This document shows positions 13,358 to 63,578 of a stretch of 64,000 bases of DNA, piece after piece. Position 1 is the stretch's first letter, and each line of letters starts with the position of its first letter. Made by a program: the position numbers and the translations under genes. The notes beneath the pieces were generated by a model. The model had not been told where the DNA came from and did not search any database. It saw only the letters and a list, made by a program, of their open reading frames with translations. Origin of the DNA: an uncultured bacterium. Lineage in GTDB: Bacteria; SAR324; NAC60-12. Where the stretch lies: positions 15,904 to 79,903 of the forward strand of contig CBFIJD010000007.1 of the NCBI GenBank assembly GCA_965662845.1, read 5' to 3'.

Positions 13358-13366
13358 GCGAGCAAT

Positions 13367-21533: not shown

Positions 21534-21587
21534 CCCACCTACCATTCACCATCCGCCTATAACCCCTCAACCGAGAAAGGATTCATA

Positions 21588-22717: not shown

Positions 22718-24232
<1,515 letters not shown>

Positions 24233-24294
24233 ACTGATTCCAGCCATCTACTGCCCGGCTACTGTGGTTGGGCAGGTCTCCGAGTTAAAATCGA

Positions 24295-26596
<2,302 letters not shown>

Positions 26597-26625
26597 TGTT
26601 CACCATCTAACGAGAAAGCAACGTC

Positions 26626-34211: not shown

Positions 34212-34301
34212 GCAGTGCTTTGGTAAGACAAGTTGGAATGTTTGGGAAGTGGACGCAGAAGACGGTCGCCCAAAGTGGGGATTTTGTGGTGCAATGAGAA
34301 A

Positions 34302-42428: not shown

Positions 42429-42486
42429 CGTCCGCAAATGTCGTCGGACGCACGAGCGCACGTCGAAACACCCCACACAGGAACGC

Positions 42487-43314
42487 ATGTCCCGCTCTCG
42501 CTGGCTCGGATTTCTCATCTTTTGCGGATTTCTTGGATTATCCACCCAACTTCTGGCGGCTCCCTCTGCCGAGCTGTGGCCCCGCTGGGAGGCGCACAAT
42601 TCGAGCGCCTCAGCACAGATCGACCATACGCCTTGGGACGAGTTTCTGTCCCGCTTTCTGGACGCCAACACGGCCTCTGGCATTCACCTGATGCGCTACG
42701 CGCAAGTGGACGCAGCCTCGCGTCAGCGACTGCAACGCTACCTGCAACAGTTACAAAACACGCCGATTTCGCAGTTCAACCGCGACGAACAGATGGCGTT
42801 CTGGATCAATCTCTACAACGCCCGCACCGTCGAGTTGATTCTGCAGGAAGCTCCGGTTTCTTCGATTACCGACATTTCGTTTAGCCTCTTCAGCTTTGGG
42901 CCGTGGGGCGAAGAGCTGCTGACCGTCGAGAACGAAAGGCTCTCGCTAGACGACATCGAGCACCGCATCTTGCGCCCCATCTGGAGAGACCCACGCATTC
43001 ACTACGCGGTGAACTGCGCCAGCCTCGGGTGCCCCAACTTGCAACCCAAAGCCTTCACCGCGGCGACCTTAGAAGCGCAGCTCGAACAAGCCGCCCGCGA
43101 GTTTGTGAACCACCCCCGCGGGGTCCGCTTTGAAGGCGAAGCCTTAATCCTCTCCAAAATTTACGATTGGTTTCAGGAAGATTTTGGGGCTCACGAAGCG
43201 GACGTCCTCCGCCACCTGGTGCTCTATGCCGAACCAGAGTTGGCCGAACGCTTGCGGTCTTTCGAGGGAGAGATCGACTACGAATATGACTGGAATCTCA
43301 ACGAGGAGCGCTGA
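42487..43314 (+). CDS. DUF547 domain-containing secreted protein
   Basis: A signal peptide is followed by AFWINLYNARTVELIL...HYAVNCASLGCPNL, which I recognise as the DUF547 signature. Its TGA stop sits 1 nt before the next gene's ATG. Confidence 0.6.
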   Translation: MSRSRWLGFLIFCGFLGLSTQLLAAPSAELWPRWEAHNSSASAQIDHTPWDEFLSRFLDANTASGIHLMRYAQVDAASRQRLQRYLQQLQNTPISQFNRDEQMAFWINLYNARTVELILQEAPVSSITDISFSLFSFGPWGEELLTVENERLSLDDIEHRILRPIWRDPRIHYAVNCASLGCPNLQPKAFTAATLEAQLEQAAREFVNHPRGVRFEGEALILSKIYDWFQEDFGAHEADVLRHLVLYAEPELAERLRSFEGEIDYEYDWNLNEER

Positions 43315-43315
43315 C

Positions 43316-45508
43316 ATGAACCCCTTTCTGCAAGACCGCCAACGCTGGGTGCTGGGCCTCGTAGTGTTGCTCGTCGGGCTGTTTTTTGTGCTGGATCTGC
43401 CAAATGTGCTGACGTTGGAAAACCTCAAAGCCTCGCGGGAAGGCTTCCGAGAGTCTTATGCTGCGAATCCCTTTTGGTTTGGGATGCTCTACTTCGTGGG
43501 ATACGTGATCGTGACGGCGTCTTCGGTGCCGGGGGCTGCCGTGCTGACGCTCGCGGGAGGCGCGGTGTTTGGGCTGGTCGGCGGCACGCTGCTGGTCTCG
43601 TTCGCCAGCACGATCGGCGCAACGTTGGCGATGCTCGCGGCGCGATTTCTGTTATATCCCAGCGTAGAAAAACGCTTTGGGGACTCCTTGCGGCGCCTCA
43701 ACCGTGGCGTTGAGCGGGAGGGAGCCTTCTACTTGTTCACGTTGCGGTTGGTTCCGATTGTGCCGTTTTTCGTCATCAATTTGGGCATGGGGCTCACCAA
43801 AATGCCGGCTCGCACCTTTTATTGGGTCAGCCAGCTGGGCATGTTGCCCGGAACCATCGTCTATGTGAACGCTGGCGCTGAGCTTGGACAAATCGAATCG
43901 ATGGGCGACATCTTGTCTGGCAGCCTGCTGTTTTCCTTCGCCTTGTTGGGGATCTTCCCTCTTGTCGCTAAGAAAGGAGTGGAAGCCTATCGCAAGCGTC
44001 GCGCCCCGCAGCCTACGTCTACGACCTCAAGCAGCTCCGCCCAAGTGAACGCTGCGCCTGCCGTACACACACCGCGACCTTACGATTACAACCTCGTCGC
44101 GATTGGCGCGGGCGCGGCGGGTCTCGTCACGACGTACATGGGCGCCGCGTTGCAAGCTCGCGTGGCGTTGATCGAGAAGCACAAAATGGGCGGTGACTGC
44201 TTGAACACCGGCTGCGTGCCCAGCAAAGCGCTATTGAGCAGCGCCAAAGCCGCACAACAGATGCGAAACGCCGCGAAATACGGGCTCGAACCCGTCGAGG
44301 TGCAGGTGAACTTTGCGCAGGTGATGACGCAGGTGCAGCAAATCATTCAGCGCATCGAGCCGCACGACAGCGTCGAGCGTTACACGGCGCTTGGCGTGGA
44401 GTGTCTGCAAGGCGAGGCGTTCGTGCATTCGCCCAACGAGGTCGAAGTCTTTGGACAAAAGCTCACCACGAGTCGTCTCGTGATCGCGACCGGAGCACGT
44501 CCGTTTGTCCCGCCGATTGTCGGTCTGGAACGAGTCCCGTTCTCGCATTCGGACAACATCTGGGAGCTGCGTCAGCTGCCTCGGCGTTTGGTCGTGATCG
44601 GTGGTGGTCCGATCGGTTGCGAGCTAGCGCAGGCGTTTCAACGTCTTGGGTCACAGGTCACGTTGCTCGAGCGAGGCCCTGACATCCTGCCCAAAGAAGA
44701 CCGAGACATGGCGACCTTTGTTCAGCGCCGCATGGAAGCCGACGGCGTGCGCATTTTGACCGGTGTGACTCTGGAGAACGTCGCGCGCGTTGGCGACGTG
44801 ACGCACGTACACCTGCAGGGGCACGACGGGCAAGTGGTCGCCTGTGAGCACATCCTCGTGGCGGCGGGGCGCAAAGCCAACACAGACGGTTTTGGGCTGG
44901 AAGCGCTAGGCGTGGAGAAAAACCCAGACGGGACGCTGTGGGTGGACGCTCACTTACAGACAAGCGCGGCGGGGATCTATGCGTGTGGCGACGTGGCGGG
45001 ACCGTATCAGTTCACGCACATGGCCGGGCACCAAGGGTGGTATGCGTCGGTCAACGCTCTGTTCTCGCCGCTGAAGCAGTTCGCGGTGGACTACTCGGTC
45101 GTGCCTTGGTGCACCTACACCGATCCAGAGTTGGCGCATGTCGGCCTGAGCGAGACGATGGCGCAAGCGCAGAACATCCCCTACGAGGTCACGGTCTTCC
45201 CGCTGAACGACCTTGACCGCGCCATCACCGACCGCACAGATGAGGGCCAAATCAAAGTGTTGACGAAGCCCAACTCTGACAAAATCCTCGGCGCGACCAT
45301 CTGTGGGCATCACGCGGGAGACTTGCTGACGGAGTATATTCTGGCGATGAAGCACGGTCTCGGGCTCAACAAAATTCTCGGGACGATTCATCCGTACCCA
45401 ACGCTCGCGGAAGGCAACAAGTTGCTCGCTGGGGCGTGGCGTCGAAACCACAGCCCAGCGTGGCTGATGCCGTATCTCAAAGCCTTTCACACGTGGAAGC
45501 GGAGCTGA
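43316..45508 (+). CDS. Fusion of an N-terminal DedA/TVP38 (SNARE-associated) membrane domain with a C-terminal FAD-dependent pyridine nucleotide-disulfide oxidoreductase (mercuric reductase/dihydrolipoamide dehydrogenase-like)
   Basis: The DedA region is VPGAAVLTLAGGAVFGLVGGTLLVSFASTIGATLAML...RLVPIVPF. The FAD region is LVAIGAGAAGLVTTYMGA...GGDCLNTGCVPSKALL (a redox CxxxxC), the NAD-binding motif is VVIGGGPIGCELAQAF, and the C-terminus is ...HPYPTLAEG. Confidence 0.8.
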   Translation: MNPFLQDRQRWVLGLVVLLVGLFFVLDLPNVLTLENLKASREGFRESYAANPFWFGMLYFVGYVIVTASSVPGAAVLTLAGGAVFGLVGGTLLVSFASTIGATLAMLAARFLLYPSVEKRFGDSLRRLNRGVEREGAFYLFTLRLVPIVPFFVINLGMGLTKMPARTFYWVSQLGMLPGTIVYVNAGAELGQIESMGDILSGSLLFSFALLGIFPLVAKKGVEAYRKRRAPQPTSTTSSSSAQVNAAPAVHTPRPYDYNLVAIGAGAAGLVTTYMGAALQARVALIEKHKMGGDCLNTGCVPSKALLSSAKAAQQMRNAAKYGLEPVEVQVNFAQVMTQVQQIIQRIEPHDSVERYTALGVECLQGEAFVHSPNEVEVFGQKLTTSRLVIATGARPFVPPIVGLERVPFSHSDNIWELRQLPRRLVVIGGGPIGCELAQAFQRLGSQVTLLERGPDILPKEDRDMATFVQRRMEADGVRILTGVTLENVARVGDVTHVHLQGHDGQVVACEHILVAAGRKANTDGFGLEALGVEKNPDGTLWVDAHLQTSAAGIYACGDVAGPYQFTHMAGHQGWYASVNALFSPLKQFAVDYSVVPWCTYTDPELAHVGLSETMAQAQNIPYEVTVFPLNDLDRAITDRTDEGQIKVLTKPNSDKILGATICGHHAGDLLTEYILAMKHGLGLNKILGTIHPYPTLAEGNKLLAGAWRRNHSPAWLMPYLKAFHTWKRS

Positions 45509-47232: not shown

Positions 47233-47634
47233 ATGTCTGAAGAATTGGAAGCCCTACTCGAACGCCAGCAACGCCAACATGAACGTCTTGAAGAACTAAA
47301 GCAACGCACCCCACTGTCCACTTCTGGAGACGACGCTTTCCGCTATCAGGACGCCAGCTATGATCTTCACCAGCGAGACGACGAAGTGTTTCTCAGCATC
47401 GACGTTCCTGGGGTGTTGGAAGAATCGGTCGCTTTTGACTTTCAGGACGCCGCCTTCTTCGTGACGGGTGAGTTCCCCGCCTCTGAACCAGACCACGCGG
47501 TCTGTGTGCAACAAAACCGCCTACGGGGGCCGTTTCGGTATCAATTTTTGTTGCCTCGCCCGGCCCAGCGGTTTGAATCGTATCAAGAGAATGGTGTTTT
47601 GTATTTACGCATTCAGTTGCAGCCTGAGGAATGA
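47233..47634 (+). CDS. Hsp20/alpha-crystallin family small heat-shock protein
   Basis: The alpha-crystallin domain pattern is ...DEVFLSIDVPGVLEESVAFDFQDAAFFVTGE...RLRGPFRYQFLLPRPA...ENGVLYLRIQL. Confidence 0.7.
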   Translation: MSEELEALLERQQRQHERLEELKQRTPLSTSGDDAFRYQDASYDLHQRDDEVFLSIDVPGVLEESVAFDFQDAAFFVTGEFPASEPDHAVCVQQNRLRGPFRYQFLLPRPAQRFESYQENGVLYLRIQLQPEE

Positions 47635-47637
47635 CTT

Positions 47638-47784
47638 ATGCCCAGAATCTTACGTAACTACTTGATTAGTTTTTTGATTATCGGCACTTTGCTGGGCATC
47701 ATTCACGCGTTGGACTTGTATTTCAACCCTCGTGAAGCCACATCCCCAACTCCGGAACCAACGGCAACCGTCCCGCAAAATTAG
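47638..47784 (+). CDS. Possible 48-aa small membrane protein MPRILRNYLISFLIIGTLLGIIHALDLYFNPREATSPTPEPTATVPQN
   Basis: The ORF sits between hsp20 and fxsA, and its TAG stop directly abuts the fxsA ATG. It has a single predicted TM helix. It is below the 60-aa cutoff of the ORF track. Confidence 0.3.
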   Translation: MPRILRNYLISFLIIGTLLGIIHALDLYFNPREATSPTPEPTATVPQN

Positions 47785-48159
47785 ATGACAGCTATCGTTT
47801 GGATCGCGCTCAGTCTGCTCTTGCTGATCGAGACGCTGCTGCTGAGCGTCCTTGCGCGCTCTTTGGGCAACCTCAGCTTGTTTCTGTTGAGCGGAGTGAC
47901 GGCTGGAGCGGGCTTGTGGTTGATGAGAGGCGAGGATTTTTCGCTCTGGACTCTGGTCGAGACTGAACTTCAGCAGCGGCGGCTGCCGACTACAGAGCTC
48001 TGGGACGCTCTGGTGCTCTGGCTGGCTGGAGGTCTTCTGGTGGTGCCCGGCTTGCTCTCGGATGCCATCGGCATCGTGCTCACGCTTCCCGACATTCGCT
48101 CCACGTTGGTTGAGCGCTTGGAGCACTATTTTCGCCAACGCTGGCGGGCACCACTCTAA
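47785..48159 (+). CDS. fxsA: FxsA family cytoplasmic membrane protein
   Basis: MTAIVWIALSLLLLIETLLLSVLARSLG...LVVPGLLSDAIGIVLTLP is the characteristic FxsA sequence. Confidence 0.8.
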   Translation: MTAIVWIALSLLLLIETLLLSVLARSLGNLSLFLLSGVTAGAGLWLMRGEDFSLWTLVETELQQRRLPTTELWDALVLWLAGGLLVVPGLLSDAIGIVLTLPDIRSTLVERLEHYFRQRWRAPL

Positions 48160-48185
48160 CAAAACTCCCACCACAGGAACCTGAT

Positions 48186-49961
48186 TTGCGCAATCTATGG
48201 CTCTCTATAGCGTTCTGGGCAATCTGTGCGCTCTACAGCCCTGCCCTCGCTGCGACACCAGCTGCGGGAGAGGGACCCGACGGCGCCGAGGTCTTGCAGC
48301 AACTGGAAGAAGAGTTTTTGCGACAACAAGCGGCCGAAGCTGCCGCCGCGTTAGCACAAGCTCGTGCAGCAGCATCCGATGCAGAGGCAGTGCGTTTTTA
48401 CAAAGAGGCTGCTGAGAGAGGAAACGCTGAGGCTCAACTAGAGCTTGGTTTGCTCTATCGGCAACGTCGAGGCATTCAAGAAGAATTTCGTGGCAAAACC
48501 CGCTTTTCGATTGATCCCAAAGCGTTCGACTTTTTGTTCGCAAGCAAGATGGATCAACAAGCCTTTCGCTGGATCAAGGCCGCCGCCGACCAGGACATCG
48601 CCGCCGCTCAATATTATCTCGCACAGTTCTATCAACGCGGCATCGGCGCTCCCCGCGACAGCGAACGCGCCGAAGAGCTGTTTGCGCAGGCTGCAGCAAA
48701 GGGCTTTACCCCAGAAGACGCCGTTGATTTACTGAAAGTTGAGTATGATGGGGTGGTGCAAGTTATCTCCGAACCAGAATTGGAAGTCGCCGAACTCTCC
48801 GAAGTGGAGGCTGCCGAAGTGCAAATCATTAGCACCACTCCCGACAAAACAGAGATCGTCAGCGGCAACTTTACGGTCACCATTAGCGCGTTCAGCCCCC
48901 TCCGCTCCATCGTCATCAACGAACAAACGCAACCACTCGATAATGGCAGCTTCGATGTCACCTATTCTCTGCCCTACGAACTCGAGATTGGAGAAAACTA
49001 TTTTGACCTAGAAGTCGAGACCGAAGCCACCCGCATTGAGCGCGAAATTATTATCTTTCGCGAGACCGAAGCCATCAAAAAACCCACCCCCAAGCCCCCC
49101 TTTCAACTCATCACCATTGTGGGACACACCGAAGACACAAACAGCGGCAGCGCGCCCGACGGCGCAGAAAAAATTCGAGCGCTCAAAAGCAACATGGTGC
49201 TCGTGCCGAGCTACTCCCATTACATCAACTATCGCAACACGTTTGACATCAAAGGGCTCATCACCACAGATCGCCAGTGGATGGAGTCCCAGCGCAGCAA
49301 AGAGATCCTCTTGCGTCAGGTCTCTTTCGAGTGGGTGCGCAAGTATACCGCGCTGGGCGACCTCACGACTGGAGTGGGAACCAACCAACTGGGGCTCCGC
49401 GATGTGCCTGAGACCAGCCCCCTCCGTGACGGCTGGAGCTCAGACTTCCGCAAAGTCTCCGCAGACTCCTTTCTGTTCGGAAAATTCAAGCTCGAGACAG
49501 ACAACGAGGTGACTTGGCAAGGAAAACTAGAGCACAAGTGGAAAAACGCGGAAGGCTCCACAACGGACGATGGCGTGGCAGACAAACTCGAACTCGGGAG
49601 TGATTTCTCCATCAACGATTGGAAATACGGCGGGAAACTCAGCTATACGCTCACAGACATCCAAGATGACAGCAAAGACAAAACCGATCTCAAAGCCTCT
49701 TTCGAGGTGGGCGTCCCCACAAAACCCGTCGCCCTCAAAATCGGGCACGACTGGTCTCAATCTGAAAAACGTCTCGAAAATTCGGACGGTGTACGGCAGA
49801 AAGATCGCAAAAATGTCACGAGCTTAGGGTTCACTTATCCCTATGCCCCGTGGCTCATCATCAATTTTTCCCGCAAGTTAGAACAAGCAACTTCGAACCT
49901 AGCGAACAAAGATTACTGGAAATACCAAACTGCGCTACAGCTCACCGTCATCTACAAATAA
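48186..49961 (+). CDS. Secreted Sel1-repeat (TPR-like) protein with a large C-terminal domain
   Basis: A signal peptide is followed by the Sel1 repeats AAERGNAEAQLELGLLYRQRRG and AADQDIAAAQYYLAQFYQRGIGAPRD...AQAAAKG. The C-terminal roughly 380 aa are beta-rich (alternating hydrophobic positions, ends ...LQLTVIYK). Confidence 0.6.
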   Translation: MRNLWLSIAFWAICALYSPALAATPAAGEGPDGAEVLQQLEEEFLRQQAAEAAAALAQARAAASDAEAVRFYKEAAERGNAEAQLELGLLYRQRRGIQEEFRGKTRFSIDPKAFDFLFASKMDQQAFRWIKAAADQDIAAAQYYLAQFYQRGIGAPRDSERAEELFAQAAAKGFTPEDAVDLLKVEYDGVVQVISEPELEVAELSEVEAAEVQIISTTPDKTEIVSGNFTVTISAFSPLRSIVINEQTQPLDNGSFDVTYSLPYELEIGENYFDLEVETEATRIEREIIIFRETEAIKKPTPKPPFQLITIVGHTEDTNSGSAPDGAEKIRALKSNMVLVPSYSHYINYRNTFDIKGLITTDRQWMESQRSKEILLRQVSFEWVRKYTALGDLTTGVGTNQLGLRDVPETSPLRDGWSSDFRKVSADSFLFGKFKLETDNEVTWQGKLEHKWKNAEGSTTDDGVADKLELGSDFSINDWKYGGKLSYTLTDIQDDSKDKTDLKASFEVGVPTKPVALKIGHDWSQSEKRLENSDGVRQKDRKNVTSLGFTYPYAPWLIINFSRKLEQATSNLANKDYWKYQTALQLTVIYK

Positions 49962-49980
49962 AGTTTCCACAGGACTCCCT

Positions 49981-51012
49981 ATGCCGTTTTTTCAAAACAC
50001 ACAGACTTGGTTCTTCACGCTGCTCTTCAGTCTGGTGTTCTGCTCCATGCTCGCCCCCGCGCAAGCGCAGCAGCGCGGACAACTCGTCCTCGACCAAGGG
50101 CTCGTGAAAGTCAGCAACGGCAGCCGCGTTCGCATCTACAACGAACCAGGCACCACCGTGCTCATCGAAGTGGGAGATCAAATTCACACGGCTCGCGACT
50201 CGCAAGTGCGACTGGTCCTTAGCAGCGGAGATGAAATTGTGAGCTTGGGAGCCAACACGGTCTTTCAAGTGGACGCAGCAACCGCAGAGGATAGCAGCAC
50301 CCGCCTGCTAACAGGCGATCTTAAATTTGAAATCAACCCCAATCGCCCACTCGTGAATGGCAAAAAGCGCCAGTTTAAGATCCGCACCGTCACCGCCGTT
50401 GTAGGGGTCCGAGGCTCCGAAGGCGATGTCGGGTTCGATCCCTCCACAGGAGAGACCTCCGTCGTAGCGGCCGCTGGAGACATTTATGTGGTTCCCCCCG
50501 AACTGGAAGGAGACACGCTCGCCGAAATTTCGATTCCACCTGGGCAAGACGTGAGCTTGACCCAAGAATCGATCAAGCTACCCGGCGCTGACAAACCCGT
50601 CTCTAAAGAGGAAGCCGTCGCTCAGACACGCGAATCGAACAAACAAAAACAAGAAGAACCGCAACCGCAAAGCGAACCACAAGCCGGCGATGGCGCGCAA
50701 GCTCAACCGCAGCAAGAGAGCGGTGGAGAATCATCAGCGCCTCCCGCTGAAGGGAGTGGAGAGGCCGCCCCAGCATCAGATGAAGCCCCAGCTGCAGATG
50801 CTCCGGCCCCGATCGAAGAACCAGAAGCGGTCGAGGTCGAAGCCGTCGAAATCGAAGAAGTCGAACTCCCCGACCTCACCGAGATTGAAGAACTGGCTGC
50901 AGAAGCTGAAGAGGCCGCCGACGAAGCTCTCGACGCCGTAGAAGAGGCCATCGACGAAGACCTCATCGAGAGTATCCGCGAGATCAACATCGAGCTGAAC
51001 TATACGGAGTAG
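49981..51012 (+). CDS. Secreted FecR-domain protein with an acidic low-complexity C-terminal tail
   Basis: A signal peptide is followed by the FecR-like beta-sandwich pattern GQLVLDQGLVKVSNGSRVRIYNEPGTTVLIEVGD...VFQV...LTGDLKFEINP...KIRTVTAVVGVRGSEGDV. The last roughly 130 aa are E/A/P-rich (EEPEAVEVEAVEIEEVELP...). Confidence 0.55.
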   Translation: MPFFQNTQTWFFTLLFSLVFCSMLAPAQAQQRGQLVLDQGLVKVSNGSRVRIYNEPGTTVLIEVGDQIHTARDSQVRLVLSSGDEIVSLGANTVFQVDAATAEDSSTRLLTGDLKFEINPNRPLVNGKKRQFKIRTVTAVVGVRGSEGDVGFDPSTGETSVVAAAGDIYVVPPELEGDTLAEISIPPGQDVSLTQESIKLPGADKPVSKEEAVAQTRESNKQKQEEPQPQSEPQAGDGAQAQPQQESGGESSAPPAEGSGEAAPASDEAPAADAPAPIEEPEAVEVEAVEIEEVELPDLTEIEELAAEAEEAADEALDAVEEAIDEDLIESIREINIELNYTE

Positions 51013-51013
51013 C

Positions 51014-52213
51014 TTGGACCCTGCCTCTATTCCGCTCTCCAGCGAGAGTGTCGAGAGACTGCTGGAGAGCAAATTGCGCTCAGAGCTCGCCTCCTTACGG
51101 CGGTCTTCTCCTCTCGACCTCCCTGATTTGCACATGGAAGAATCCTTCCACGACTCCTCTTGGCAAGTCACGATCACCGAAATGGCGGAGTTGCTGCGGC
51201 GGCTGCATCTGATGTTTTCTCTCTCCTCAGAAGTGATCGCCCAGATGGCCGCTTATCCCTTTTTGCGTTTTTGGACGCAATCGGTTCGAGAACAGCTTCA
51301 CGCGACGCGAGACTTACAGTTCCAAACCTCTGGCAGCACCGGACACCCTAAGTTTCAGCAGCACACGTGGGCTGCGCTAGGGCAAGAAGTTGACTTTCTC
51401 ACCACGTTGTTTCCTGCCACCAAACGCATTGTGCGAGCGGTGCCTTGTCACCACATCTATGGGTTCCTCTTCACCCTGTTGCTGCCACAACGGCTGGCGG
51501 TGCCGACCGTCGAAGCGCGAACATGGAGCCCCAGCAAGCTGCAGCAAGCCCTTCAGCCAGGCGATCTGCTCGTTTCACATCCTCTGCACTGGCAGAGTTT
51601 CCAGCGCTCGGTGATGACCGTACCCGCTGGGGTCACCGGAGTGACCTCGACCGCGCCCTTTTCCTCTGCAACTTGGCAGCAACTTCAGCAACAAGGTCTG
51701 CAGCAAATCGTGGAAGTGTATGGCTCCACGGAGACCGCCGGCGTCGCGTGGCGGGAACAACCTGAGGACTGGTTCACGCTCTTTCCCTACTGGAATTGGG
51801 ATCCTTCTGCTAACGTGCCGACGTTGCGTCGCGCGGAGGAAGCCGCTGCGTTTCCGTTGATGGACCAAATCGAGCTGCACCCGCAGGACCACCGCCGCTT
51901 TCGTCCGCTCCGGCGCAGAGATGAAGCTGTGCAGGTCGCTGGACACAACGTCTTTCCGAGTCACATCGCGGATCGTCTCAGAGAGCATTCACTGGTGGAA
52001 GACTGCGCCGTCCGCTTGATGCGCCCAGACGAAGGCAGCCGCCTCAAAGCGTTTGTCGTCGGCACCGGCAATCGCGTCTTGGAACCTGCCGAGCAGCAGT
52101 CTCTGCGCGCGTGGATCGCGTCTCAACTCCCAGCCCCGCAACAACCCAAATCCCTGCGTTTTGGCTCGGAACTTCCCCGCAACGACGCCGGCAAACTCAC
52201 CGACTGGACATGA
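51014..52213 (+). CDS. Compact adenylate-forming enzyme (AMP-dependent CoA ligase, about 399 aa, p-coumaroyl-CoA ligase-like)
   Basis: The AMP-binding core is FQTSGSTGHPKFQQHTW, followed by YGSTETAG and a C-terminal ...ELPRNDAGKLTDW Lys motif. It lacks the roughly 150-aa N-terminal extension of FadD-type ligases. It begins 2 nt after the FecR-like gene's stop. Confidence 0.65.
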   Translation: MDPASIPLSSESVERLLESKLRSELASLRRSSPLDLPDLHMEESFHDSSWQVTITEMAELLRRLHLMFSLSSEVIAQMAAYPFLRFWTQSVREQLHATRDLQFQTSGSTGHPKFQQHTWAALGQEVDFLTTLFPATKRIVRAVPCHHIYGFLFTLLLPQRLAVPTVEARTWSPSKLQQALQPGDLLVSHPLHWQSFQRSVMTVPAGVTGVTSTAPFSSATWQQLQQQGLQQIVEVYGSTETAGVAWREQPEDWFTLFPYWNWDPSANVPTLRRAEEAAAFPLMDQIELHPQDHRRFRPLRRRDEAVQVAGHNVFPSHIADRLREHSLVEDCAVRLMRPDEGSRLKAFVVGTGNRVLEPAEQQSLRAWIASQLPAPQQPKSLRFGSELPRNDAGKLTDWT

Positions 52214-53790
52214 CCCCCATCTCTCTTCAAATCGCCGACCAGCTGCCCATCGCGCAAGTGCGGAATTGGCTCTGGAACCCGCCACAACTGCAACTCTCTG
52301 CTGAAGCGGCCGACCAACTCCGTCAGGCTGAAGCCTTTCTGAACCGACAAATTCAGGCCCGCAAGCTGATTTATGGGGTGACGACCGGCTACGGCCCGCT
52401 GGCCTCCGAATATCTGGAGCCCGCGCTCAGCACCGAGTTGCAACGACGCCTGATCTACCACCTCGCGAGTGGCGTCGGAGAGCCCTTCTCACCAGAAGAA
52501 TCCCGCGCCATTTTGTTGGCCCGCTTGCAAAACTTGTTGCAAGGGCACTCCGCCGTGCGTGTGGAGGTCGTGGAGCAAATGATCGCCTGCTGGAACCAAG
52601 GCCTGCTGCCGGTCATGCCAGAGCTAGGAACCGTCGGGGCGAGCGGAGACCTCACCCCGCTGGCCCACTTGGCGCTGGCGTTGATGGGCGAAGGCGAGTT
52701 TTGGGAGAACGCCCACCGCATCTCTGCGCGGGAAGCGCTCGCCGACTACGGTCGCACCCCGCTGGAACTCCACGCTAAAGACGGACTGGCGCTGGTGAAT
52801 GGTACTTCCGCGATGACGGGTCTCTCCCTATGGAACTCGGCTTGGTTCCATCGGGCGCTGGATTGGGCGCTACGGCTCTCGTTTGCCTATGCAGAGATCT
52901 ATCGCGCTCGCCGCGAAGCCTTCTCGCCGCGTGTCGGGGAAGCCCGCCGGCACCCAGGACAAGTGGCGATCCATCAGCAGCTATGGAGCTGGGCCCAGCA
53001 GAGCCAGCGACTGCAACCATACGCCGGAAAGGTCGCCAACCTGCCGCGCGCAGACACTCCGACAGATGGCATCTGGCACGCACAAGCGCTCCTGCAAGAT
53101 CCCTATTCGATTCGCTGCTTGCCGCAAATTTTTGGCGCCATCACAGATGTGCTGGCGTTTCACGACACGACAGTAGAGCGCGAGTTCAACGCGACGACAG
53201 ACAACCCGCTGGTTTTTGCGGAAGGCGAAGAGATCTTGCACGCGGGCAACTTTTACGGACAACACGTCGCGTTTGCCGCAGATGCGCTCTGCAACGCGGT
53301 GCTGAAGTTGGCAATTCTGGCCGAACGACAAGTCGCTCGCATCACAGATGTCCAGCTCAGCCCGCCCGAGCTACCAGCTTTCTTGCAACCACATCGGCTG
53401 GGATTGAACAGCGGCTTTATGGGCGCGCAAGTCACGGCGACGGCGTTGGTCGCGGAGCTGCGCACGCACGCGATCCCAGCGTCCGTCCAAAGTGTCGCGA
53501 CCAACGCGAACAATCAGGACGTCGTGAGTATGGGGACGATCGCCGCGCGCAAGGTCGCGCGGTTGCGTCCACGGGTCTTTGAGCTGCTGGCGGTGGAAGC
53601 GCTCGTGCTGGCGCAAGCCTTAGAGTTGTGCGGGGTTGAGAAAACGTCGGCGGGCTTCAGCCCTGTGAGTCAGCAGATTTGGGAGGTGGTGCGTCAAGAG
53701 TCGGAGTTTCTGAGGGAAGATCGCCCGCTAGCGCCGGATCTCCAACGCGTTGCGGGGCGATTACAAAACACTGCTGCGAGTGAGGCGTAG
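52210..53790 (+). CDS. Aromatic amino-acid ammonia-lyase (MIO-dependent, HAL/PAL/TAL family), with the tyrosine ammonia-lyase-type His-Leu selectivity switch
   Basis: The MIO-forming triad sits in GTVGASGDLTPLAHLA (Ala-Ser-Gly). The selectivity position reads RLIYHLASGVGEP, i.e. H-L before the xSGVG block; my recollection is that HAL has S-H and PAL has F-L there. The start overlaps the ligase stop as ATGA. 526 aa. Confidence 0.7.
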   Translation: MTPISLQIADQLPIAQVRNWLWNPPQLQLSAEAADQLRQAEAFLNRQIQARKLIYGVTTGYGPLASEYLEPALSTELQRRLIYHLASGVGEPFSPEESRAILLARLQNLLQGHSAVRVEVVEQMIACWNQGLLPVMPELGTVGASGDLTPLAHLALALMGEGEFWENAHRISAREALADYGRTPLELHAKDGLALVNGTSAMTGLSLWNSAWFHRALDWALRLSFAYAEIYRARREAFSPRVGEARRHPGQVAIHQQLWSWAQQSQRLQPYAGKVANLPRADTPTDGIWHAQALLQDPYSIRCLPQIFGAITDVLAFHDTTVEREFNATTDNPLVFAEGEEILHAGNFYGQHVAFAADALCNAVLKLAILAERQVARITDVQLSPPELPAFLQPHRLGLNSGFMGAQVTATALVAELRTHAIPASVQSVATNANNQDVVSMGTIAARKVARLRPRVFELLAVEALVLAQALELCGVEKTSAGFSPVSQQIWEVVRQESEFLREDRPLAPDLQRVAGRLQNTAASEA

Positions 53791-55302: not shown

Positions 55303-56319
55303 TCAGTTGCGGCTGATCGCGACTGGCTCTGTTCGCACTTTCAGACCATTCGCAGCGCCTTTGAGGGGAGATACAATCAGGCGCTCTCCCTCTTCTAAGC
55401 CTGCGGCCAGAAAGACTTCGTCATCTTCCACTCGCAACACATCCACTGGGCGAATCTCCAAAAGGTCTTGTTGTGCGACCCAAACAGTGTTGGCGTCGCG
55501 CAAAGCCGTCGCTGGAATCACAATCACATTTTCCAGTCGTCGCGCTGGAATCAAGACATCGACAAAGGTCCCCATAAAGAGCGGCAGAGCGCCGTTGTCT
55601 CCAAAACGGTTCAAATGAAAGGGATCGTTCACGGTCAACACAAGCTGCGTCATCAGCCCCTGCGGGGTCACTTCAGGCAGAAAGCGCTGCACAGAGGCAT
55701 CCCAAATGCCGATCCGCTCGCCATACCGGAGCCGAACGGTCGCGGACATGCGCAGGCTGTCTGCGTTCGGATCAAACCCCAACCACTCCAAATCCTGCAT
55801 AGGCAAATCGACCACCACCTCGGCTTGGTCGCTGCCAACCAGCACTCCTAATTGGGCGCCTGGCGACACAAATTGCCCCAGGTCCACGGCTCGCTCTTGC
55901 AAGACGGCATGGAAGGGGGCTCGCAGCGCGGTGTAGTCCAGATTGCCGCCATTCATTGGTTGCAGCGTCACGAGCAAATCGCCTTCTTTGACAAAAGCGC
56001 CTTCGCGGAGTTGGGGGCTAATCCAGTTCACAATTCCGGAGATTTGCGGTGTGAGCAGCACTCGCTGCGCCGGTTGCACCCGGCCGTTTAGCTCCAGTTG
56101 AACTTGTCGCGTCGTGCGCATCACCGTGACGGTCTCGACAAGTTTGCCTTCGTAGGGCTGGGCTTTCTTCTCAGCTTCAGGGCTTGTGAAGACCAGCCCC
56201 GCCGTCGCCGCGCTGCCGAGCAATAAAATGAAAATGGGGAGCCAGAGTTTCAGGTTCGTCAGCCACGACCAGCGAGTCGGACGACGAAGGAGGTTTTGAG
56301 GGCGCATCAGTCGGGACAA
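55303..56319 (-). CDS. Efflux transporter periplasmic adaptor (membrane-fusion protein, HlyD/RND-MFP family). It is solitary: no pump gene is adjacent.
   Basis: An N-terminal TM anchor is followed by the biotinyl/lipoyl-like hairpin region ...LTPQISGIVNWISPQLREGAFVKEGDLLVTLQP and beta-barrel domain patterns. Confidence 0.6.
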   Translation of the reverse strand: MSRLMRPQNLLRRPTRWSWLTNLKLWLPIFILLLGSAATAGLVFTSPEAEKKAQPYEGKLVETVTVMRTTRQVQLELNGRVQPAQRVLLTPQISGIVNWISPQLREGAFVKEGDLLVTLQPMNGGNLDYTALRAPFHAVLQERAVDLGQFVSPGAQLGVLVGSDQAEVVVDLPMQDLEWLGFDPNADSLRMSATVRLRYGERIGIWDASVQRFLPEVTPQGLMTQLVLTVNDPFHLNRFGDNGALPLFMGTFVDVLIPARRLENVIVIPATALRDANTVWVAQQDLLEIRPVDVLRVEDDEVFLAAGLEEGERLIVSPLKGAANGLKVRTEPVAISRN

Positions 56320-56825
56320 TAATACTGGTGGATCGGTTGGTCGTCAGGCAGGGCTTGCAACGGAATCCATTCGCGGCGCGTGTCCCGCAGAAACTCGACG
56401 AGGGTTTCGGGCATTTTTTCATTGCGTCCAATCAGCGTCAATGTCTGATCTGAACAATTATACAGTCGCAGTTGATGGTTCCATCCATCGTCGATTTGAA
56501 TGGTGCTCAGCCCCGCGAGGACAATCTTGGGGGCATTCGCTGGGGTGGGAAACGTTCGCGTGAGGGCCGACTGATCATACACCAGCAGGGTCGTCGGAGG
56601 TGCAAGCCAGTGAGCAGGGTTGTAAAAGTCTCCATCTCGGACAGAGTAGATCTCGACCAAAGTCGCGGGGCCGTTCTGCCCCTGTCGCACCTGCTCCCGA
56701 ATGCGGTCAGCCCACTGGTATCCTGTGGCGATAGTGTACGTCCATCCAAGGATAATCAGAAGCAGTATGACCCACGCGGTCGTGCGGGTGTTGAGACGGT
56801 GTAACCAGTGGATGAAAGAAGACAT
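56307..56825 (-). CDS. Hypothetical membrane-anchored protein (172 aa)
   Basis: It has an N-terminal TM helix (AWVILLLIILGWTYTIA). It overlaps the MFP gene start by 13 nt. I recognise no domain. Confidence 0.4.
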   Translation of the reverse strand: MSSFIHWLHRLNTRTTAWVILLLIILGWTYTIATGYQWADRIREQVRQGQNGPATLVEIYSVRDGDFYNPAHWLAPPTTLLVYDQSALTRTFPTPANAPKIVLAGLSTIQIDDGWNHQLRLYNCSDQTLTLIGRNEKMPETLVEFLRDTRREWIPLQALPDDQPIHQYYCPD

Positions 56826-56900
56826 CGTTCGCGCGCTAAAAAATCACTTGGGAAACGCGCGAGGATAGCGGCGCTGGCTGGGAAGGCAAGGGGAATTTGT

Positions 56901-57680
56901 TCAGAAGCGGTAAGTCACGAAGAGATTGAGGGTTTGGCTCAGGCGTGCTTTGCCTGTTGTGCTTGGATAGCGGATGTCAATCCCGCTCTCCGGAAAGCCG
57001 AATAAGGAGAGGTCATACCAGCCGAGCTCGCCGCCCACAAAAAGCTCTTCGCTGATCAAGAACGAGACGGGGATTTCTAGGCCGTTCAGCGATGGCTGCG
57101 CGCTCACGCTGTCAACTTGATCGGACAGGTGGCCGGTTCCCCAAATGCCCAGCACCAGCTCGGGAGTCAATTGTAACGTCGGTGAGTCAATGAGCAGCCA
57201 CCCCGCCGTGATCGCGAGAGACTGCTGGGTGTAGCGAATTTCGTCTGCGGCATTGTAAGAGCCAGCCATGTCGGCGAACAGCCATTCGGCTCCCAAGGTA
57301 TAGCCTGCGTATTCGACCCAATGGTAGTGCACAACAAGCGACGATCCGCTCAAATCAAACGTGTTCCCGTGCTTCTCATAGCTCCCGGCAGCCGCGCCGA
57401 CGCCAACACTCACCTGCTGTCGGAAGCCGAGTTCTGCTGTTGGCGCGCTTGCGATGACCTCCGCTTCGTCAGCGCCGACTTCCTCTGCGAACGTCTCCGG
57501 TTCTGGGGCAGGGGGGGCTTCTGGCAACAGCTCGCTCTCTTCGCACGTGTAAGCAATGACATCGTCCGCCAGACCCAGCCGTTCCATCTCGGCGATCTCT
57601 TCTGACGTACAGGCGCCCCATGTGCTCCCAGCCCACAACATTGCGGTCAACACCGCGCTCCATCGCTTCCAGTGCTTCAT
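56901..57680 (-). CDS. Outer-membrane beta-barrel protein
   Basis: The signal peptide MKHWKRWSAVLTAMLWAGSTWGA is followed by alternating amphipathic beta-strands. The C-terminus is ...LNLFVTYRF, ending in the aromatic residue typical of outer-membrane beta-barrels. Confidence 0.6.
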   Translation of the reverse strand: MKHWKRWSAVLTAMLWAGSTWGACTSEEIAEMERLGLADDVIAYTCEESELLPEAPPAPEPETFAEEVGADEAEVIASAPTAELGFRQQVSVGVGAAAGSYEKHGNTFDLSGSSLVVHYHWVEYAGYTLGAEWLFADMAGSYNAADEIRYTQQSLAITAGWLLIDSPTLQLTPELVLGIWGTGHLSDQVDSVSAQPSLNGLEIPVSFLISEELFVGGELGWYDLSLFGFPESGIDIRYPSTTGKARLSQTLNLFVTYRF

Positions 57681-57835
57681 ACCCTGATCTGTTCGAGGTT
57701 GACGAAAAACCACCTGCCCGATGCAACAATCATGACACTCCTTCAGGCCTGTGTGACGATTTGCTACGCTCTTTGCATCCCTCCGACAACCTCAATTTCC
57801 CAACCTTTGCCGAAGTTTTTCAGAGACGAGCGAAC

Positions 57836-59340: not shown

Positions 59341-60702
59341 TCAGCGCGGCTGTAGTCGATCGCCGAAGATTTGCTGCAAGCGCTGGACGGAGTCTTGGAG
59401 GTTGGTGTTTTCGCTCATCCCTTGCCGGGCAAACTCCATCATCAGAGGATACTTCTGGACAGCATAGTCAATGTCAGGGTTGCTGCCGCGCACATACGCG
59501 CCAATGTTGATGAGATCTTCGGCTTCCCGATACGTTGCCAAAGTGCTGCGATAAATTTGTGCAAGCTGCTGGTGTACGTCAGACGTCACATCCGGCATCA
59601 CGCGGCTCGCCGAGACAAGCAGATCGACCGCAGGGTAGGTGCCTTTGGCAGCGATGTCGCGGTTTAACACAATGTGACCGTCCACAATCGCCCGAGCAGC
59701 GTCGCCAATCGGGTCGTTCGTATCATCCCCTTCAATCAAGACCGTGTAAAAGCCGGTGATGGATCCCTTCTCTCCGCTGGTTCCGGCGCGCTCTAACAAG
59801 CCTGGCATCGTGGCAAACACAGAGGGCGGATAGCCCTTGGTCGTTGGCGGTTCTCCTGCGGCCAAGCCAATCTCCCGTTGCGCCATCGCGAAACGAGTCA
59901 GCGAGTCCATCGTCAGCAACACGTCCATGCCTTGAGCACGAAAAAATTCTGCAATCGAGGTAGCGACATAGGCTCCGCGCATTCTCAACAGCGCTGGTTG
60001 GTCGGAGGTCGCGACCACCACCACAGAGCGCGCCATACCTCCTGGCCCTAAGATTCCTTCAATAAAGTCTTTCACCTCGCGACCGCGCTCACCAATCAAA
60101 GCAATCACGTTGACATCGGCGTTGGTAAAGCGCGCCATCATGCCTAGCAACACGGACTTCCCGACGCCGGAGCCGGCCAAGATCCCAATGCGCTGACCGC
60201 GTCCACAAGTCAGCACACCATTGAGCACGCGGACTCCTACATCCAGCGGTTCAAACACGCGCGGGCGATTGAGCGGATTGATTGAAGGTGGATAAAGCGG
60301 CGTTTCGGTGTGTGTAAAAAGTTCCCCTTGGCCATCAATCGGGCGCATCAAAGGGTCAAGCACGCGGCCCAGAAGCCCCTCGCCCACGCGCACCATTGGG
60401 TCGCGATGATTGTAGAGAATCCGACACTGCGGGCCGACGTTGTTCATTTGCTCCAGCAGCATCACCAAGATTTTATCCTCACGGAAGCCAACCACTTCGG
60501 CAGGGACGGAGACTTGGGTCTGTGGATCGAAGACGTAGCACATGCTGCCTTTCGAGCAGCCTGGGTTGGTCGCTTCTAGCAAGTGACCGATCATGTGCGT
60601 GACACGACCTTCGGGGCGCAACGCGCGGTAGCGCTGCATGTGCTTGAGATAGGGATCAAGGTGAGAATAGGGCGGTAAGTGGGTCGGGCTCTCCAGAGAC
60701 AT
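59341..60702 (-). CDS. fliI: Flagellum-specific ATPase FliI (T3SS ATPase family)
   Basis: Walker A is GSGVGKSVLLGMMAR and Walker B is ...VLLTMDSLTRFA. The protein is 453 aa. Its start shares 1 nt with the fliH stop. Confidence 0.88.
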   Translation of the reverse strand: MSLESPTHLPPYSHLDPYLKHMQRYRALRPEGRVTHMIGHLLEATNPGCSKGSMCYVFDPQTQVSVPAEVVGFREDKILVMLLEQMNNVGPQCRILYNHRDPMVRVGEGLLGRVLDPLMRPIDGQGELFTHTETPLYPPSINPLNRPRVFEPLDVGVRVLNGVLTCGRGQRIGILAGSGVGKSVLLGMMARFTNADVNVIALIGERGREVKDFIEGILGPGGMARSVVVVATSDQPALLRMRGAYVATSIAEFFRAQGMDVLLTMDSLTRFAMAQREIGLAAGEPPTTKGYPPSVFATMPGLLERAGTSGEKGSITGFYTVLIEGDDTNDPIGDAARAIVDGHIVLNRDIAAKGTYPAVDLLVSASRVMPDVTSDVHQQLAQIYRSTLATYREAEDLINIGAYVRGSNPDIDYAVQKYPLMMEFARQGMSENTNLQDSVQRLQQIFGDRLQPR

Positions 60703-61886
60703 CAGTGGTCTCCATTGAGCAAGTCGAGCGGATCGATCATCTCATCTACAGCAGGCTCCTTGTCCTGAGGCGAGGGATCGCTCTCGGGAGCGGAGTCCAT
60801 TTCTACCGGCTCCGGGCGAGGTGCGCCGGGGCTGAAATCATGCGCGTCCATGTCTACGGTGTGCAGCTGGACTTGGCGTTGGGCGAGCTTTTGGCTGAGT
60901 TCTTCTTCGACCTGCTCAAACTGTTGCTGCAACGTGAAGTTCAACGCGTTGTCGTCGGTTTCAATATAAATCGAGCCGGGCTCGGCGTCAGGATTGACCT
61001 TAATGCTCAGGGTCTGGTCTTCATCCATATATTGCTCCAGATCAACGCCCGTGTTCTGAATGAACTCGAAGTCTTCAGGATGCAGGAAGACTTGGATGCG
61101 CCCCATGGTCTCAATTTCTTTGAGCGCCTTACGCAGAATGTTCTGCAGCATCTCTGGGTTGAGCTCGAGTTCCTGAATGATCACGCGTTTTGCGATCAGC
61201 ACTGAGAGTTGCACCAGCTCTTGTTCTGCCTGAAAGCGGACGACTTGGCGCAAGCTGGCCAGCTGCTCAATTACGGCAGACATTTGATGCGCTAGATATT
61301 CAGACTCCTGAAATCGCTGCTGCATCCCCTCTTGGCGCCCCGCTTCAAACCCCTCTTGATAGCCCTGCTCTTTGATCTGCTCGGCTTCTGTGTAAGCGTT
61401 CTGGAGGACGTCTTGGCGCTCATCTTCCATCGCCTGCTTCAGCGCTTGGGTCTCGCGCTTGAGCTGTTCTGCCTCTGCGTGAGCGTCTTCCGTTTTGCTC
61501 AACAGCTGACGTTTGTAGAGCTCGGCGCCTTCCCGAATGGAGCGCGCGTAGGCCTCGGCGTCCGTCAACAAAGAGTTTTCGCGATTAAACTTATCACTCT
61601 CAAACTCACTGGCCAGCGCGAGCTTTTCTTCTTCGCTTTTTGAATATTCGCCTGTGTCGAGCTGTCCATAGTCGGCGTCACTGGCAAAGGCCTCGGCCCC
61701 AGCATCGTAGCCCTCATGGAAATGAATCGTTTCGAACGCCTCCGACTTTTCCAGATGCTCTGGAAGGGCTTGTTCGGTCTTGGCCACAGGGGTAGCTTCT
61801 GCGCGCAAACGAGGGGAGCCTTCCGCTTCAGAATCTACAGAGTCGTCAAAGCTCGGTAAGACAAATTCTTGAAATTCGTCGCTCAT
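60702..61886 (-). CDS. fliH: Flagellar assembly protein FliH (long form with an acidic N-terminal extension)
   Basis: The FliH motifs are AYTEAEQIKEQGYQEGFEAGRQEG and LVQLSVLIAKRVIIQELELNPEMLQNILRKAL. I do not see a FliG torque-helix signature in it. Confidence 0.7.
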   Translation of the reverse strand: MSDEFQEFVLPSFDDSVDSEAEGSPRLRAEATPVAKTEQALPEHLEKSEAFETIHFHEGYDAGAEAFASDADYGQLDTGEYSKSEEEKLALASEFESDKFNRENSLLTDAEAYARSIREGAELYKRQLLSKTEDAHAEAEQLKRETQALKQAMEDERQDVLQNAYTEAEQIKEQGYQEGFEAGRQEGMQQRFQESEYLAHQMSAVIEQLASLRQVVRFQAEQELVQLSVLIAKRVIIQELELNPEMLQNILRKALKEIETMGRIQVFLHPEDFEFIQNTGVDLEQYMDEDQTLSIKVNPDAEPGSIYIETDDNALNFTLQQQFEQVEEELSQKLAQRQVQLHTVDMDAHDFSPGAPRPEPVEMDSAPESDPSPQDKEPAVDEMIDPLDLLNGDH

Positions 61887-61964
61887 AAGAAAATTGCGGT
61901 GTGAGGAGAGGAGGACGGAAACAGGCAGGGAAGCGGTGGGAGCCGACGAGGCGACTCCTGCACA

Positions 61965-63578
61965 TTACTTCTTGTCGCGCAACCAGGTCCGTACCAAGTT
62001 GGCGGTCTTGAGCGGATCTGCCTTGGCCATTTCCAGAATCTTGTCGCGCGGCGGCAGGCCAGATTCGCGTTCGGTCGGAATTTCGAGTTCTTCGCCTTCG
62101 AGCTCGCCAATCGTCGCTGGTAGCCCCATGAGGAGGTCGAGATCTGCCGGCTTCGTGCTGAGTCGCTGCACCATCGGGCGAATCACCAACATGATCAAAG
62201 CGAGCACCGCGGCGCCCAGCGCTACGTAGCGAATGACGTCCAGAATGAACTGGTTGCGGACGCGCGTCGCCTCTAGCTCGGCGGCTTTGTCTTCTTCCAA
62301 GGCCTTCCCAAACGGCATGTTGACGACGGTCACACTGTCGCCTCTCTCCGCGCTGAAGCCAATCGCGCTCTGCACCAGAGAGACGATCTCTTCCTTCTCA
62401 TTCTCTGACCAAGGGATGTTGTCGCGGCCTAGATAGTTGCCGCTTTCGTCAAGAATTTGTGGGCGCTTGTTGTCTAAGAGCACGGAGACGGTGAGGCGAG
62501 TGACTTGGCCTGTCGCGGTCTCTTTGACGACCTCGCGGCGTGAGGTTTCAAAGTTGCGGGTTGAGTTCTTCTTAGAGAATTCGGAGACCGTCGCGGCTTC
62601 TCTGCCGGTCGCTTCTGGGAGGTTGGTGGTCACGCCAGCCGGGCCAACGGGGATCGAGCGTGTTCCTGTTGAGGCTTCATCAACCAGTTGCTCGCTCACA
62701 ATGCTGGTCTGGTCGGGGTCGATCAACTCTTCGCGGATGGTCTCGCGATCAAATCGTAGGAGCGCGTTCACGTTCACACGCACGCGATCTTGTCCCACGA
62801 CCTCTTCCAGTTGCGTGACAATCTTTTGCTCCAATTCCATCTCGAAGCGGCGCTTGTAAGCATAGTGTTCGTCGAGGCGACCGCTCACGGTGGTGTCATC
62901 CATTCCCTCAGTCAGGAGGCGACCTCGCTGGTCGGTCACTCGGACTCTCCCCGGTTGGAGTCCTTCGACGGCGCCAGCGACCAAGTGGACGACTGTCTCA
63001 ACTTGCGGCTTGCTGATGCCATTTCCGTTGACTGTCAGGGCTACGGAAGCGGACGCTTCTTCTGCTGCATCGGCGAAGAGCGTCTTCTGCGGCACAGCTA
63101 AGGAGACACGAGCGCTCGTGATGTTTTGAATCGTGCTGATCAACCGAGCGAGCTCTCCTTCTTGCGCCACGCGATACTTCACTTGCTGCTGAAATTCGGT
63201 TTCTCCGAGCGCGGGCTGCGCGAACAAGTCTAGGAAGCCAACCCCGCTGTTGGGGAGCACTTTTTCGCTGGCGAGGGTTAGCCTTGCTTGGTCTACCAGC
63301 TCAGGTGGGACCATGACGCCGCTGCCTCCAGGGGCGAGCATGTAAGGCACCTGATTTTCTTGTAATTTTTGAACGATCTTGGCGGCGTCTTCGGGAGCGA
63401 GGTTAGAGTAGAGGGGGGCCCAACTATCTTGGTTCGAGATCACGATGATAGACACCATCCCTACCAGTACAATCAGGAGAGAGACCAGTACGGTGATGCG
63501 TTTTCCGAGGCTTAGAGAGCCAAAGAAATCTTGGAACTGAAGTCGTACGTCAGAGAGAGCGTTGGCTTGTTCTGCCAT
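61965..63578 (-). CDS. fliF: Flagellar M-ring protein FliF
   Basis: 537 aa. The N-terminal TM region is followed by the conserved ...LYSNLAPEDAAKIVQKLQENQVPY...ARVSLAVP...; a second TM helix lies near the C-terminus. Confidence 0.85.
   Translation of the reverse strand: MAEQANALSDVRLQFQDFFGSLSLGKRITVLVSLLIVLVGMVSIIVISNQDSWAPLYSNLAPEDAAKIVQKLQENQVPYMLAPGGSGVMVPPELVDQARLTLASEKVLPNSGVGFLDLFAQPALGETEFQQQVKYRVAQEGELARLISTIQNITSARVSLAVPQKTLFADAAEEASASVALTVNGNGISKPQVETVVHLVAGAVEGLQPGRVRVTDQRGRLLTEGMDDTTVSGRLDEHYAYKRRFEMELEQKIVTQLEEVVGQDRVRVNVNALLRFDRETIREELIDPDQTSIVSEQLVDEASTGTRSIPVGPAGVTTNLPEATGREAATVSEFSKKNSTRNFETSRREVVKETATGQVTRLTVSVLLDNKRPQILDESGNYLGRDNIPWSENEKEEIVSLVQSAIGFSAERGDSVTVVNMPFGKALEEDKAAELEATRVRNQFILDVIRYVALGAAVLALIMLVIRPMVQRLSTKPADLDLLMGLPATIGELEGEELEIPTERESGLPPRDKILEMAKADPLKTANLVRTWLRDKK

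Follow-up and report, generated by a model that had tools for sequence, protein, structure and literature searches.

The window analysed here, 64,000 nucleotides of contig CBFIJD010000007.1 from an uncultured bacterium (assembly GCA_965662845.1), encodes an ammonia-lyase, tal, whose start overlaps the end of the upstream gene, pcl. It is likely that tal encodes a tyrosine ammonia-lyase (TAL, EC 4.3.1.23) and pcl a 4-coumarate-CoA ligase (pCL), and that the pair feeds the chromophore of a photoactive yellow protein (PYP), whose gene, pyp, would lie elsewhere in the genome. As judged by its sequence, tal is an ordinary but very divergent TAL, apparently labelled correctly already in at least one public pipeline: the public protein record of its exact product sequence carries the IMG name "tyrosine ammonia-lyase". 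The coordinates of genes and motifs are collected in Table 1.

The tal product belongs to the family of lyases that depend on 4-methylideneimidazole-5-one (MIO). Its reading frame is intact from the ATG at 52210 to the stop codon at 53788-53790. The Pfam family Lyase_aromatic (PF00221) matched it with E = 3.8e-149 (497.8 bits, cut-off 27.3), residues 13-495 aligning with profile positions 2-465 of 466. The match is full-length, and the motifs in tal therefore belong to a real member of the family rather than arising by chance. Identity was 45% to the TAL of Rhodobacter sphaeroides (RsTAL; 483 aligned residues) and 36% to the histidine ammonia-lyase (HAL) of Pseudomonas putida.

The original prediction, made from the sequence alone, had described an Ala-Ser-Gly MIO triad and the residues Y-H-L-A-S-G-V-G at the position that sets substrate selectivity. 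Both were confirmed. The triad is part of GASGDLTPL, encoded at 52636-52662, and it aligned with the MIO position (written X) of the RsTAL chain 2o6y and of 2ohy, the tyrosine aminomutase of Streptomyces globisporus (SgTAM), and with the ASG of HAL and of phenylalanine ammonia-lyase (PAL). YHLASGVG is encoded at 52456-52479. A phmmer alignment with 2o6y was ungapped here, and placed His84-Leu85 on His89-Leu90 of the RsTAL string LVHHLASGVG. The H89F mutant of RsTAL, 2o78, differs from 2o6y exactly at the column of tal His84; this column is therefore RsTAL His89, which fixes the register. His89 sets tyrosine specificity, and the H89F exchange turns RsTAL into a PAL (PMC4542537, PMC9002059).

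Five proteins were aligned with MAFFT between the lid-loop tyrosine and the MIO triad. The switch pair was H-L in the tal product and in RsTAL, S-H in SgTAM and in P. putida HAL, and F-L in parsley PAL. The assignment of S-H to histidases, F-L to PALs and His-Leu to RsTAL, on which the original prediction had relied, was thus borne out for these references, and the alignment proposed with it gave H-L, not S-H, for tal. The reference strings for HAL and parsley PAL were identical to the PDB chains 1eb4/1gkm and 1w27 (residues 109-229), respectively.

The full-length alignment extended the agreement with RsTAL to the whole active site. The residues that line the RsTAL active site in the structure papers (Y60, G67, H89, L90, A149-S150-G151, L153, N203, Y300, R303, N432, N435 and Q436) were all identical in the tal product, where they are Y55, G62, H84, L85, A144-S145-G146, L148, N197, Y299, R302, N432, N435 and Q436. 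The catalytic set of the superfamily (A144-S145-G146, Y55, N197, Y299 and R302) also aligned with its HAL equivalents. In the mutagenesis literature, two residues of P. putida HAL, His83 and Glu414, separate histidase from PAL and TAL sites; in the tal product they are replaced by Leu85 and Gln436, the same residues as in RsTAL.

Among PDB chains, RsTAL 2o6y was the best match to the tal product (350.7 bits, E = 1.2e-103). SgTAM was second with 306.6 bits, histidase followed with 256.9 bits, ~95 bits under RsTAL, and PALs scored 172.6 bits or less. The identity to solved TAL structures is sufficient to assign both fold and active site. As the original prediction had stated, genes of the histidine utilisation pathway were missing from the neighbourhood: hutU, hutI and hutG (urocanase, imidazolonepropionase and formiminoglutamase) were found neither in the open reading frames (ORFs) and IMG Pfam calls of the window nor in ~16 kb of extra flank. 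This flank, ~8 kb per side, came from further contigs of this organism, and brings the region covered to ~80 kb.

The strongest context for calling tal a TAL is the adjacent pcl, which the original prediction left unremarked. The start codon of tal overlaps the TGA of pcl (ATGA), and the two genes are predicted to be translationally coupled through this overlap; a pCL would use the product of a TAL. NCBI holds the pcl product as a protein of 399 aa starting at TTG 51014, and IMG names the exact sequence "4-coumarate--CoA ligase". Its best family is TIGR02372, the short pCL of the PYP-activation type, with 276.2 bits and E = 3.4e-82 over profile positions 4-385 of 386; the next family scored 67 bits. 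In a search of 5.8 billion proteins, the nearest relatives were at most 55% (TAL) and 49% (pCL) identical. By this measure both products appear as deep singletons, far from any characterised or sequenced relative.

The GC content of tal was the highest among the genes tested (z = 2.1), with a normal GC content at third codon positions (GC3, z = 0.9). Composition thus gave no sign of recent transfer, since both genes, tal and pcl, have a GC3 typical of the host. The tal-pcl locus is 99.7-99.99% conserved in contigs of the same organism from four samples, a divergence too small for dN/dS.

Relatives of tal were collected by scanning one genome per GTDB species. The 77 found were all at most ~55% identical over the best-matching segment, and came from Gemmatimonadota, Sphingomonas, Acetobacteraceae, Rhodobacteraceae, Bacteroidota, Acidobacteriota and unclassified Pseudomonadota. 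His-Leu together with GxVGASGDL was present in every relative with a readable N-terminus (69/69). Fifty relatives had flanks of 5 kb or more on each side: a PYP gene was located within 10 kb in 34 of these, pCL occurred in 27, and both in 25. In 11 relatives pcl lies directly upstream of tal, and in all of those with enough upstream flank (10/10) pyp is found 1.2-4.1 kb upstream. PYP matches in the relatives' loci carry the Cys69 motif APC(T/A), and the four PYPs that were scanned all match TIGR02373. The linkage was also seen from the PYP side. Of the 80 best-scoring loci, out of more than 546 metagenomic PYP loci, 67 had a homologue of the window pCL, nearly always immediately downstream of pyp, and 16 had a TAL. 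By gene neighbourhood, the tal and pcl families are genetically tied to PYP.

One close homologue (GCA_028281495.1, JANQJU010000001.1; locus L085, protein P0013) encodes a PAS protein of 126 aa at a distance of 20 nt upstream from tal, and this protein is 71% identical to the Halorhodospira halophila PYP by tblastn. In the same locus (677-1066, 7601-9584), a second PAS protein, of 129 aa, is encoded ~7 kb upstream, and the gene right after tal is not pcl but encodes a protein with a metallo-beta-lactamase fold.

In PYP biosynthesis, TAL produces p-coumarate, pCL converts it to p-coumaroyl-CoA, and the thioester acylates Cys69 of apo-PYP (PMC12826048). The same route can be drawn for the genes in the window. 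The MIO electrophile would form by autocatalytic cyclisation of Ala144-Ser145-Gly146. L-tyrosine would be held through a hydrogen bond between its 4-hydroxyl and His84, the lid-loop residue Tyr55 would serve as catalytic base, and trans-p-coumarate and ammonia are the expected products. The pcl product, an adenylate-forming enzyme, would then turn p-coumarate into p-coumaroyl-CoA. A TAL and a pCL together thus predict that p-coumaroyl-CoA is made. As proposed for the pair in nearly all relatives, it would become the thioester-linked chromophore of PYP (Cys69), and its most likely destination here would be an apo-PYP whose gene lies in another part of the genome.

Several observations weigh against this assignment, among them the lack of a pyp gene in the window and in the ~16 kb of added flank. 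With the H. halophila PYP as query, the best tblastn match had E = 0.96 in the window and 0.69 in the flanking loci (L079, L082). A profile hidden Markov model (HMM) of 43 PYPs, run over six frames of the window and the two flanking loci with filters off, gave a best E = 5. From the 10 of 10 relatives with the pcl-tal order and enough flank, pyp would be expected upstream. SAR324, the probable affiliation of the host, is not among the PYP-bearing phyla in a 2025 survey of 984 PYPs. The pcl product scores under the TIGR02372 cut-off of 334.7, and the tal product is below the cut-off of every NCBIfam equivalog model. With identities of no more than 55% for tal and 49% for pcl, the specificities are extrapolated over a long distance.

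Two of these points can be compared with other enzymes. Six pCLs from PYP-linked clusters of the relatives scored 153-353 bits on TIGR02372, and five of the six were under its cut-off; they came from three pyp-pcl-tal runs (L024, L038, L061), a locus with pyp ~4 kb upstream (L057) and two other arrangements (L003, L014). The only TAL-specific models among the NCBIfam matches of the tal product were FlxA (flexirubin TAL; 384 bits, cut-off 700) and BagA (bagremycin TAL; 251 bits, cut-off 1000), and no model of a PYP-type TAL was among them.

Candidates for an overlooked PYP were also inspected. The weak tblastn match of the window, at 57588-57656, falls within no plausible gene and lacks the APC motif. 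A hidden PAS or PYP domain in the Sel1-repeat or FecR-domain proteins encoded upstream of pcl was rejected: the FecR frame gave E = 18 with the PYP HMM, and both proteins have signal peptides. No PYP locus from the host samples 3300038702 or 3300038982 was among the best 80 of the more than 546 metagenomic loci, and no paper in the library searched mentions both SAR324 and PYP.

The simplest reading is that pyp sits elsewhere in the host genome. Such an arrangement would have precedent. Among 113 predicted pyp operons, TAL is present in only 5% and pCL in 32% (PMC12826048). The Rhodobacteraceae TAL loci that were examined had no PYP within 10 kb and no pCL within 8 kb of tal. In the locus of Cereibacter johrii (L055), which we take to be a close relative of the RsTAL source organism, neither PYP nor pCL was found within 10 kb.

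None of the alternative explanations is favoured by the evidence. The most serious holds that p-coumaroyl-CoA is made for an acceptor other than PYP, in a small-molecule pathway, as a signalling molecule or on an unrecognised protein, possibly in connection with the Sel1 and FecR proteins. The absence of pyp from ~80 kb would fit, as would a SAR324 host outside the phyla listed with PYP and the position of pcl-tal at the end of a tight seven-gene array. However, the short pCL family almost exclusively adjoins pyp, no FecR or Sel1 homologue was found near tal in any of the 77 relatives' loci, and the Sel1 and FecR proteins carry signal peptides, whereas the CoA thioester would be cytoplasmic. 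Moreover, nothing among the window ORFs would plausibly consume p-coumaroyl-CoA; polyketide synthases, acyltransferases and LuxI-type synthases, for instance, are all missing. We regard a non-PYP acceptor as unlikely; in a weaker version, the locus may belong to the first PYP system in SAR324, with an unusually dispersed gene layout. That pcl and tal are a relic, functionless after the loss or relocation of pyp, would account for its absence from a position where relatives with the same gene order have it. This is very unlikely given two intact, full-length frames with all catalytic residues and adenylation motifs and a GC3 typical of the host; the conservation among the four samples points the same way, though the divergence is too small to gauge selection.

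Other alternatives concern the reaction of the lyase itself. The tal product could be an MIO enzyme of another kind: a tyrosine 2,3-aminomutase, a PAL, a mixed PAL/TAL or a lyase of a substituted tyrosine such as L-DOPA. Lyases and mutases have one common active site, no rule known to us tells them apart reliably by sequence, and SgTAM was the second-best structural relative. The aminomutase model TIGR03832 gave 395.6 bits, but this is under its cut-off of 501, and the switch is Ser-His in SgTAM and Phe-Leu in PALs, against His-Leu in tal. The coupled coumarate-CoA ligase would need the product of a lyase and not beta-tyrosine, and the relatives of tal are PYP-linked, so that another MIO reaction seems distinctly improbable. 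The label that generic annotation at family level would give, a catabolic histidine ammonia-lyase (HutH), is suggested by the two top NCBIfam models, PRK09367 (459.2 bits) and TIGR01225 (446.8 bits), both for histidine ammonia-lyase; neither score reaches its cut-off (524 and 539.15, respectively). With the histidase residues Ser-His and Glu414 replaced by His-Leu and Gln, HAL structures far behind RsTAL and no hut genes in ~80 kb, a HutH function can be considered extremely unlikely. The original prediction of a tyrosine lyase rather than a hut-pathway histidase is supported by the switch pair, the best structural match, the missed hutH cut-off, the lack of hut genes nearby, the coupled pcl, the PYP linkage of relatives with the same switch pair and the IMG names of both proteins.

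A TAL coupled to a pCL, the preferred assignment, can be set beside four known systems. RsTAL (2o6y, 2o7b, 2o7d; H89F mutant 2o78) shares with the tal product the fold family, the MIO triad, the His-Leu switch, all active-site residues examined and a similar length (526 aa for tal, 521 residues in the PDB chain), and the C. johrii TAL is likewise distant from any pyp. The two are only 45% identical, tal is coupled to pcl, unlike the Rhodobacteraceae TALs examined, and the present host is not an alphaproteobacterium. The pyp-pcl-tal operon of H. halophila contains the same two enzymes on one strand, pcl followed by tal (PMC12826048). This order is also found with H. halophila-like PYPs in the relatives L024, L038 and L061. 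In the window, in contrast, pyp is missing, and a secreted FecR-domain gene fills the slot upstream of pcl.

P. putida HutH (1b8f, 1gkm) has the fold family, the MIO triad and the catalytic residues Y53, N195, Q277, Y280, R283 and F329 (HAL numbering) in common with the tal product. Its identity to tal is lower than that of RsTAL, its Ser82-His83 and Glu414 correspond to His84-Leu85 and Gln436, and tal lacks a hut operon context. SgTAM (2ohy) is an MIO enzyme acting on tyrosine, but its residues in the two switch columns are Ser-His. Its role is in an enediyne pathway, and it is not known to have a CoA ligase partner.

Table 1 Features of the tal-pcl locus and other reading frames of the window. 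Positions refer to the 64,000-nucleotide window.
Feature	Position	Strand	Basis or remark
tal, predicted MIO-dependent tyrosine ammonia-lyase, 526 aa	52210..53790	+	PF00221; best PDB match RsTAL
Tyr55 codon, lid-loop catalytic tyrosine	52372..52374	+	Alignments; equals RsTAL Tyr60, HAL Tyr53
His84-Leu85 codons, substrate-selectivity switch	52459..52464	+	Alignments; equals RsTAL His89-Leu90
Ala144-Ser145-Gly146 codons, MIO electrophile precursor	52639..52647	+	Aligned to MIO position
Gln436 codon, position of histidase-specific Glu414	53515..53517	+	Full-length MAFFT, HAL sequence PDB-verified; RsTAL also Gln436
pcl, predicted short 4-coumarate-CoA ligase, PYP-activation type, 399 aa	51014..52213	+	TIGR02372
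pcl adenylation motif SGSTGHPK	51329-51352	+	
pcl adenylation motif YGSTE	51719-51733	+	
pcl C-terminal AGK lysine motif	52187-52198	+	
Five genes before pcl-tal, in order: HSP20-like (133 aa), 48-aa membrane peptide, FxsA, Sel1-repeat, FecR-domain	47233..51012	+	Gene calls, Pfam
Secreted Sel1-repeat protein, 591 aa	48186-49961	+	
Secreted FecR-domain protein, 343 aa, long acidic tail	49981-51012	+	
ORF(s) without a Pfam family	18746-20035	-	
ORF(s) without a Pfam family	33423-33992	+	
ORF(s) without a Pfam family	34233-35324	+	
ORF(s) without a Pfam family	55303-57713	-	

The pcl-tal pair is the last part of an array of seven co-directional genes (47233-53790, plus strand) with gaps of at most 26 nt, which looks like one transcription unit, so that pcl and tal would be co-transcribed. 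A single nucleotide separates the stop codon of the FecR-domain gene from the start of pcl. In its C-terminal half, the Sel1-repeat protein looks like an outer-membrane beta-barrel. The envelope proteins of the array have no evident link to p-coumaroyl-CoA. Scans for promoters and terminators around the array returned sites no more frequent than in shuffled sequence, and the 64 kb yielded neither a tRNA gene nor an Rfam match at gathering score.

The other genes of the window are chromosomal housekeeping genes. They include a glycine-betaine-type ABC transporter, fpg, rsmH, sbcCD, RNase H, a hybrid histidine kinase, purB, trpS, atpF'FHAGDC, rlmE, murG and guaA, as well as yejB, pgi, a 1-Cys peroxiredoxin, recO and fliE/F/H/I. 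The ATP synthase operon (21054-27063, plus strand) has the order atpF'-atpF-atpH-atpA-atpG-atpD-atpC, without genes for the a and c subunits, a layout known from deltaproteobacteria-like lineages. For AtpD, the closest named relatives (81-85% identity) come from metagenome-assembled genomes labelled "SAR324 cluster bacterium" and "Deltaproteobacteria bacterium". On sequence, the host is probably affiliated with SAR324. The GC content of the window is ~57%, which is high for marine SAR324.

Further features were recorded in the window. At 42394-45508 (plus strand), a gene for a DUF547 protein is followed by one for a 774-aa fusion of an N-terminal VTT/DedA-type membrane domain and an oxidoreductase of the MerA/dihydrolipoyl-dehydrogenase-like pyridine-nucleotide disulphide type, an unusual membrane-anchored flavoprotein architecture. 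The flagellar genes fliF, fliH and fliI (59341-63578, minus strand) have no fliG between fliF and fliH, and FliH, at 394 aa, is long and carries an acidic extension at its N-terminus. At 10595-14197 (minus strand), the hybrid histidine kinase (920 aa) has a HAMP domain, two HisKA/HATPase_c sets and a receiver domain, and its gene adjoins that of a phosphonate-type periplasmic binding protein. A 318-aa protein (39718-40674, plus strand) matched HisKA only (E = 2e-8), with no ATPase domain detected; its gene overlaps the end of a VWA-domain gene (38469-39725). For several sizeable ORFs (429, 189, 363, 338, 172 and 270 aa), neither the Pfam search at E <= 1e-5 nor the IMG calls gave a family.

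The analysis replaces a likely generic label, histidine or aromatic ammonia-lyase, with that of a TAL coupled to a coumarate-CoA ligase. Beyond its divergence, its host and the missing pyp, this would be a textbook system. As outliers, the tal and pcl products would be useful to test how far the His-Leu rule predicts the substrate, and they are possible new parts for microbial p-coumarate production. For biology, the point of interest is where, or whether, a SAR324-affiliated genome encodes the PYP that pcl-tal would serve. The gene pair marks this uncultured, probably SAR324-affiliated host as a candidate blue-light responder via PYP.

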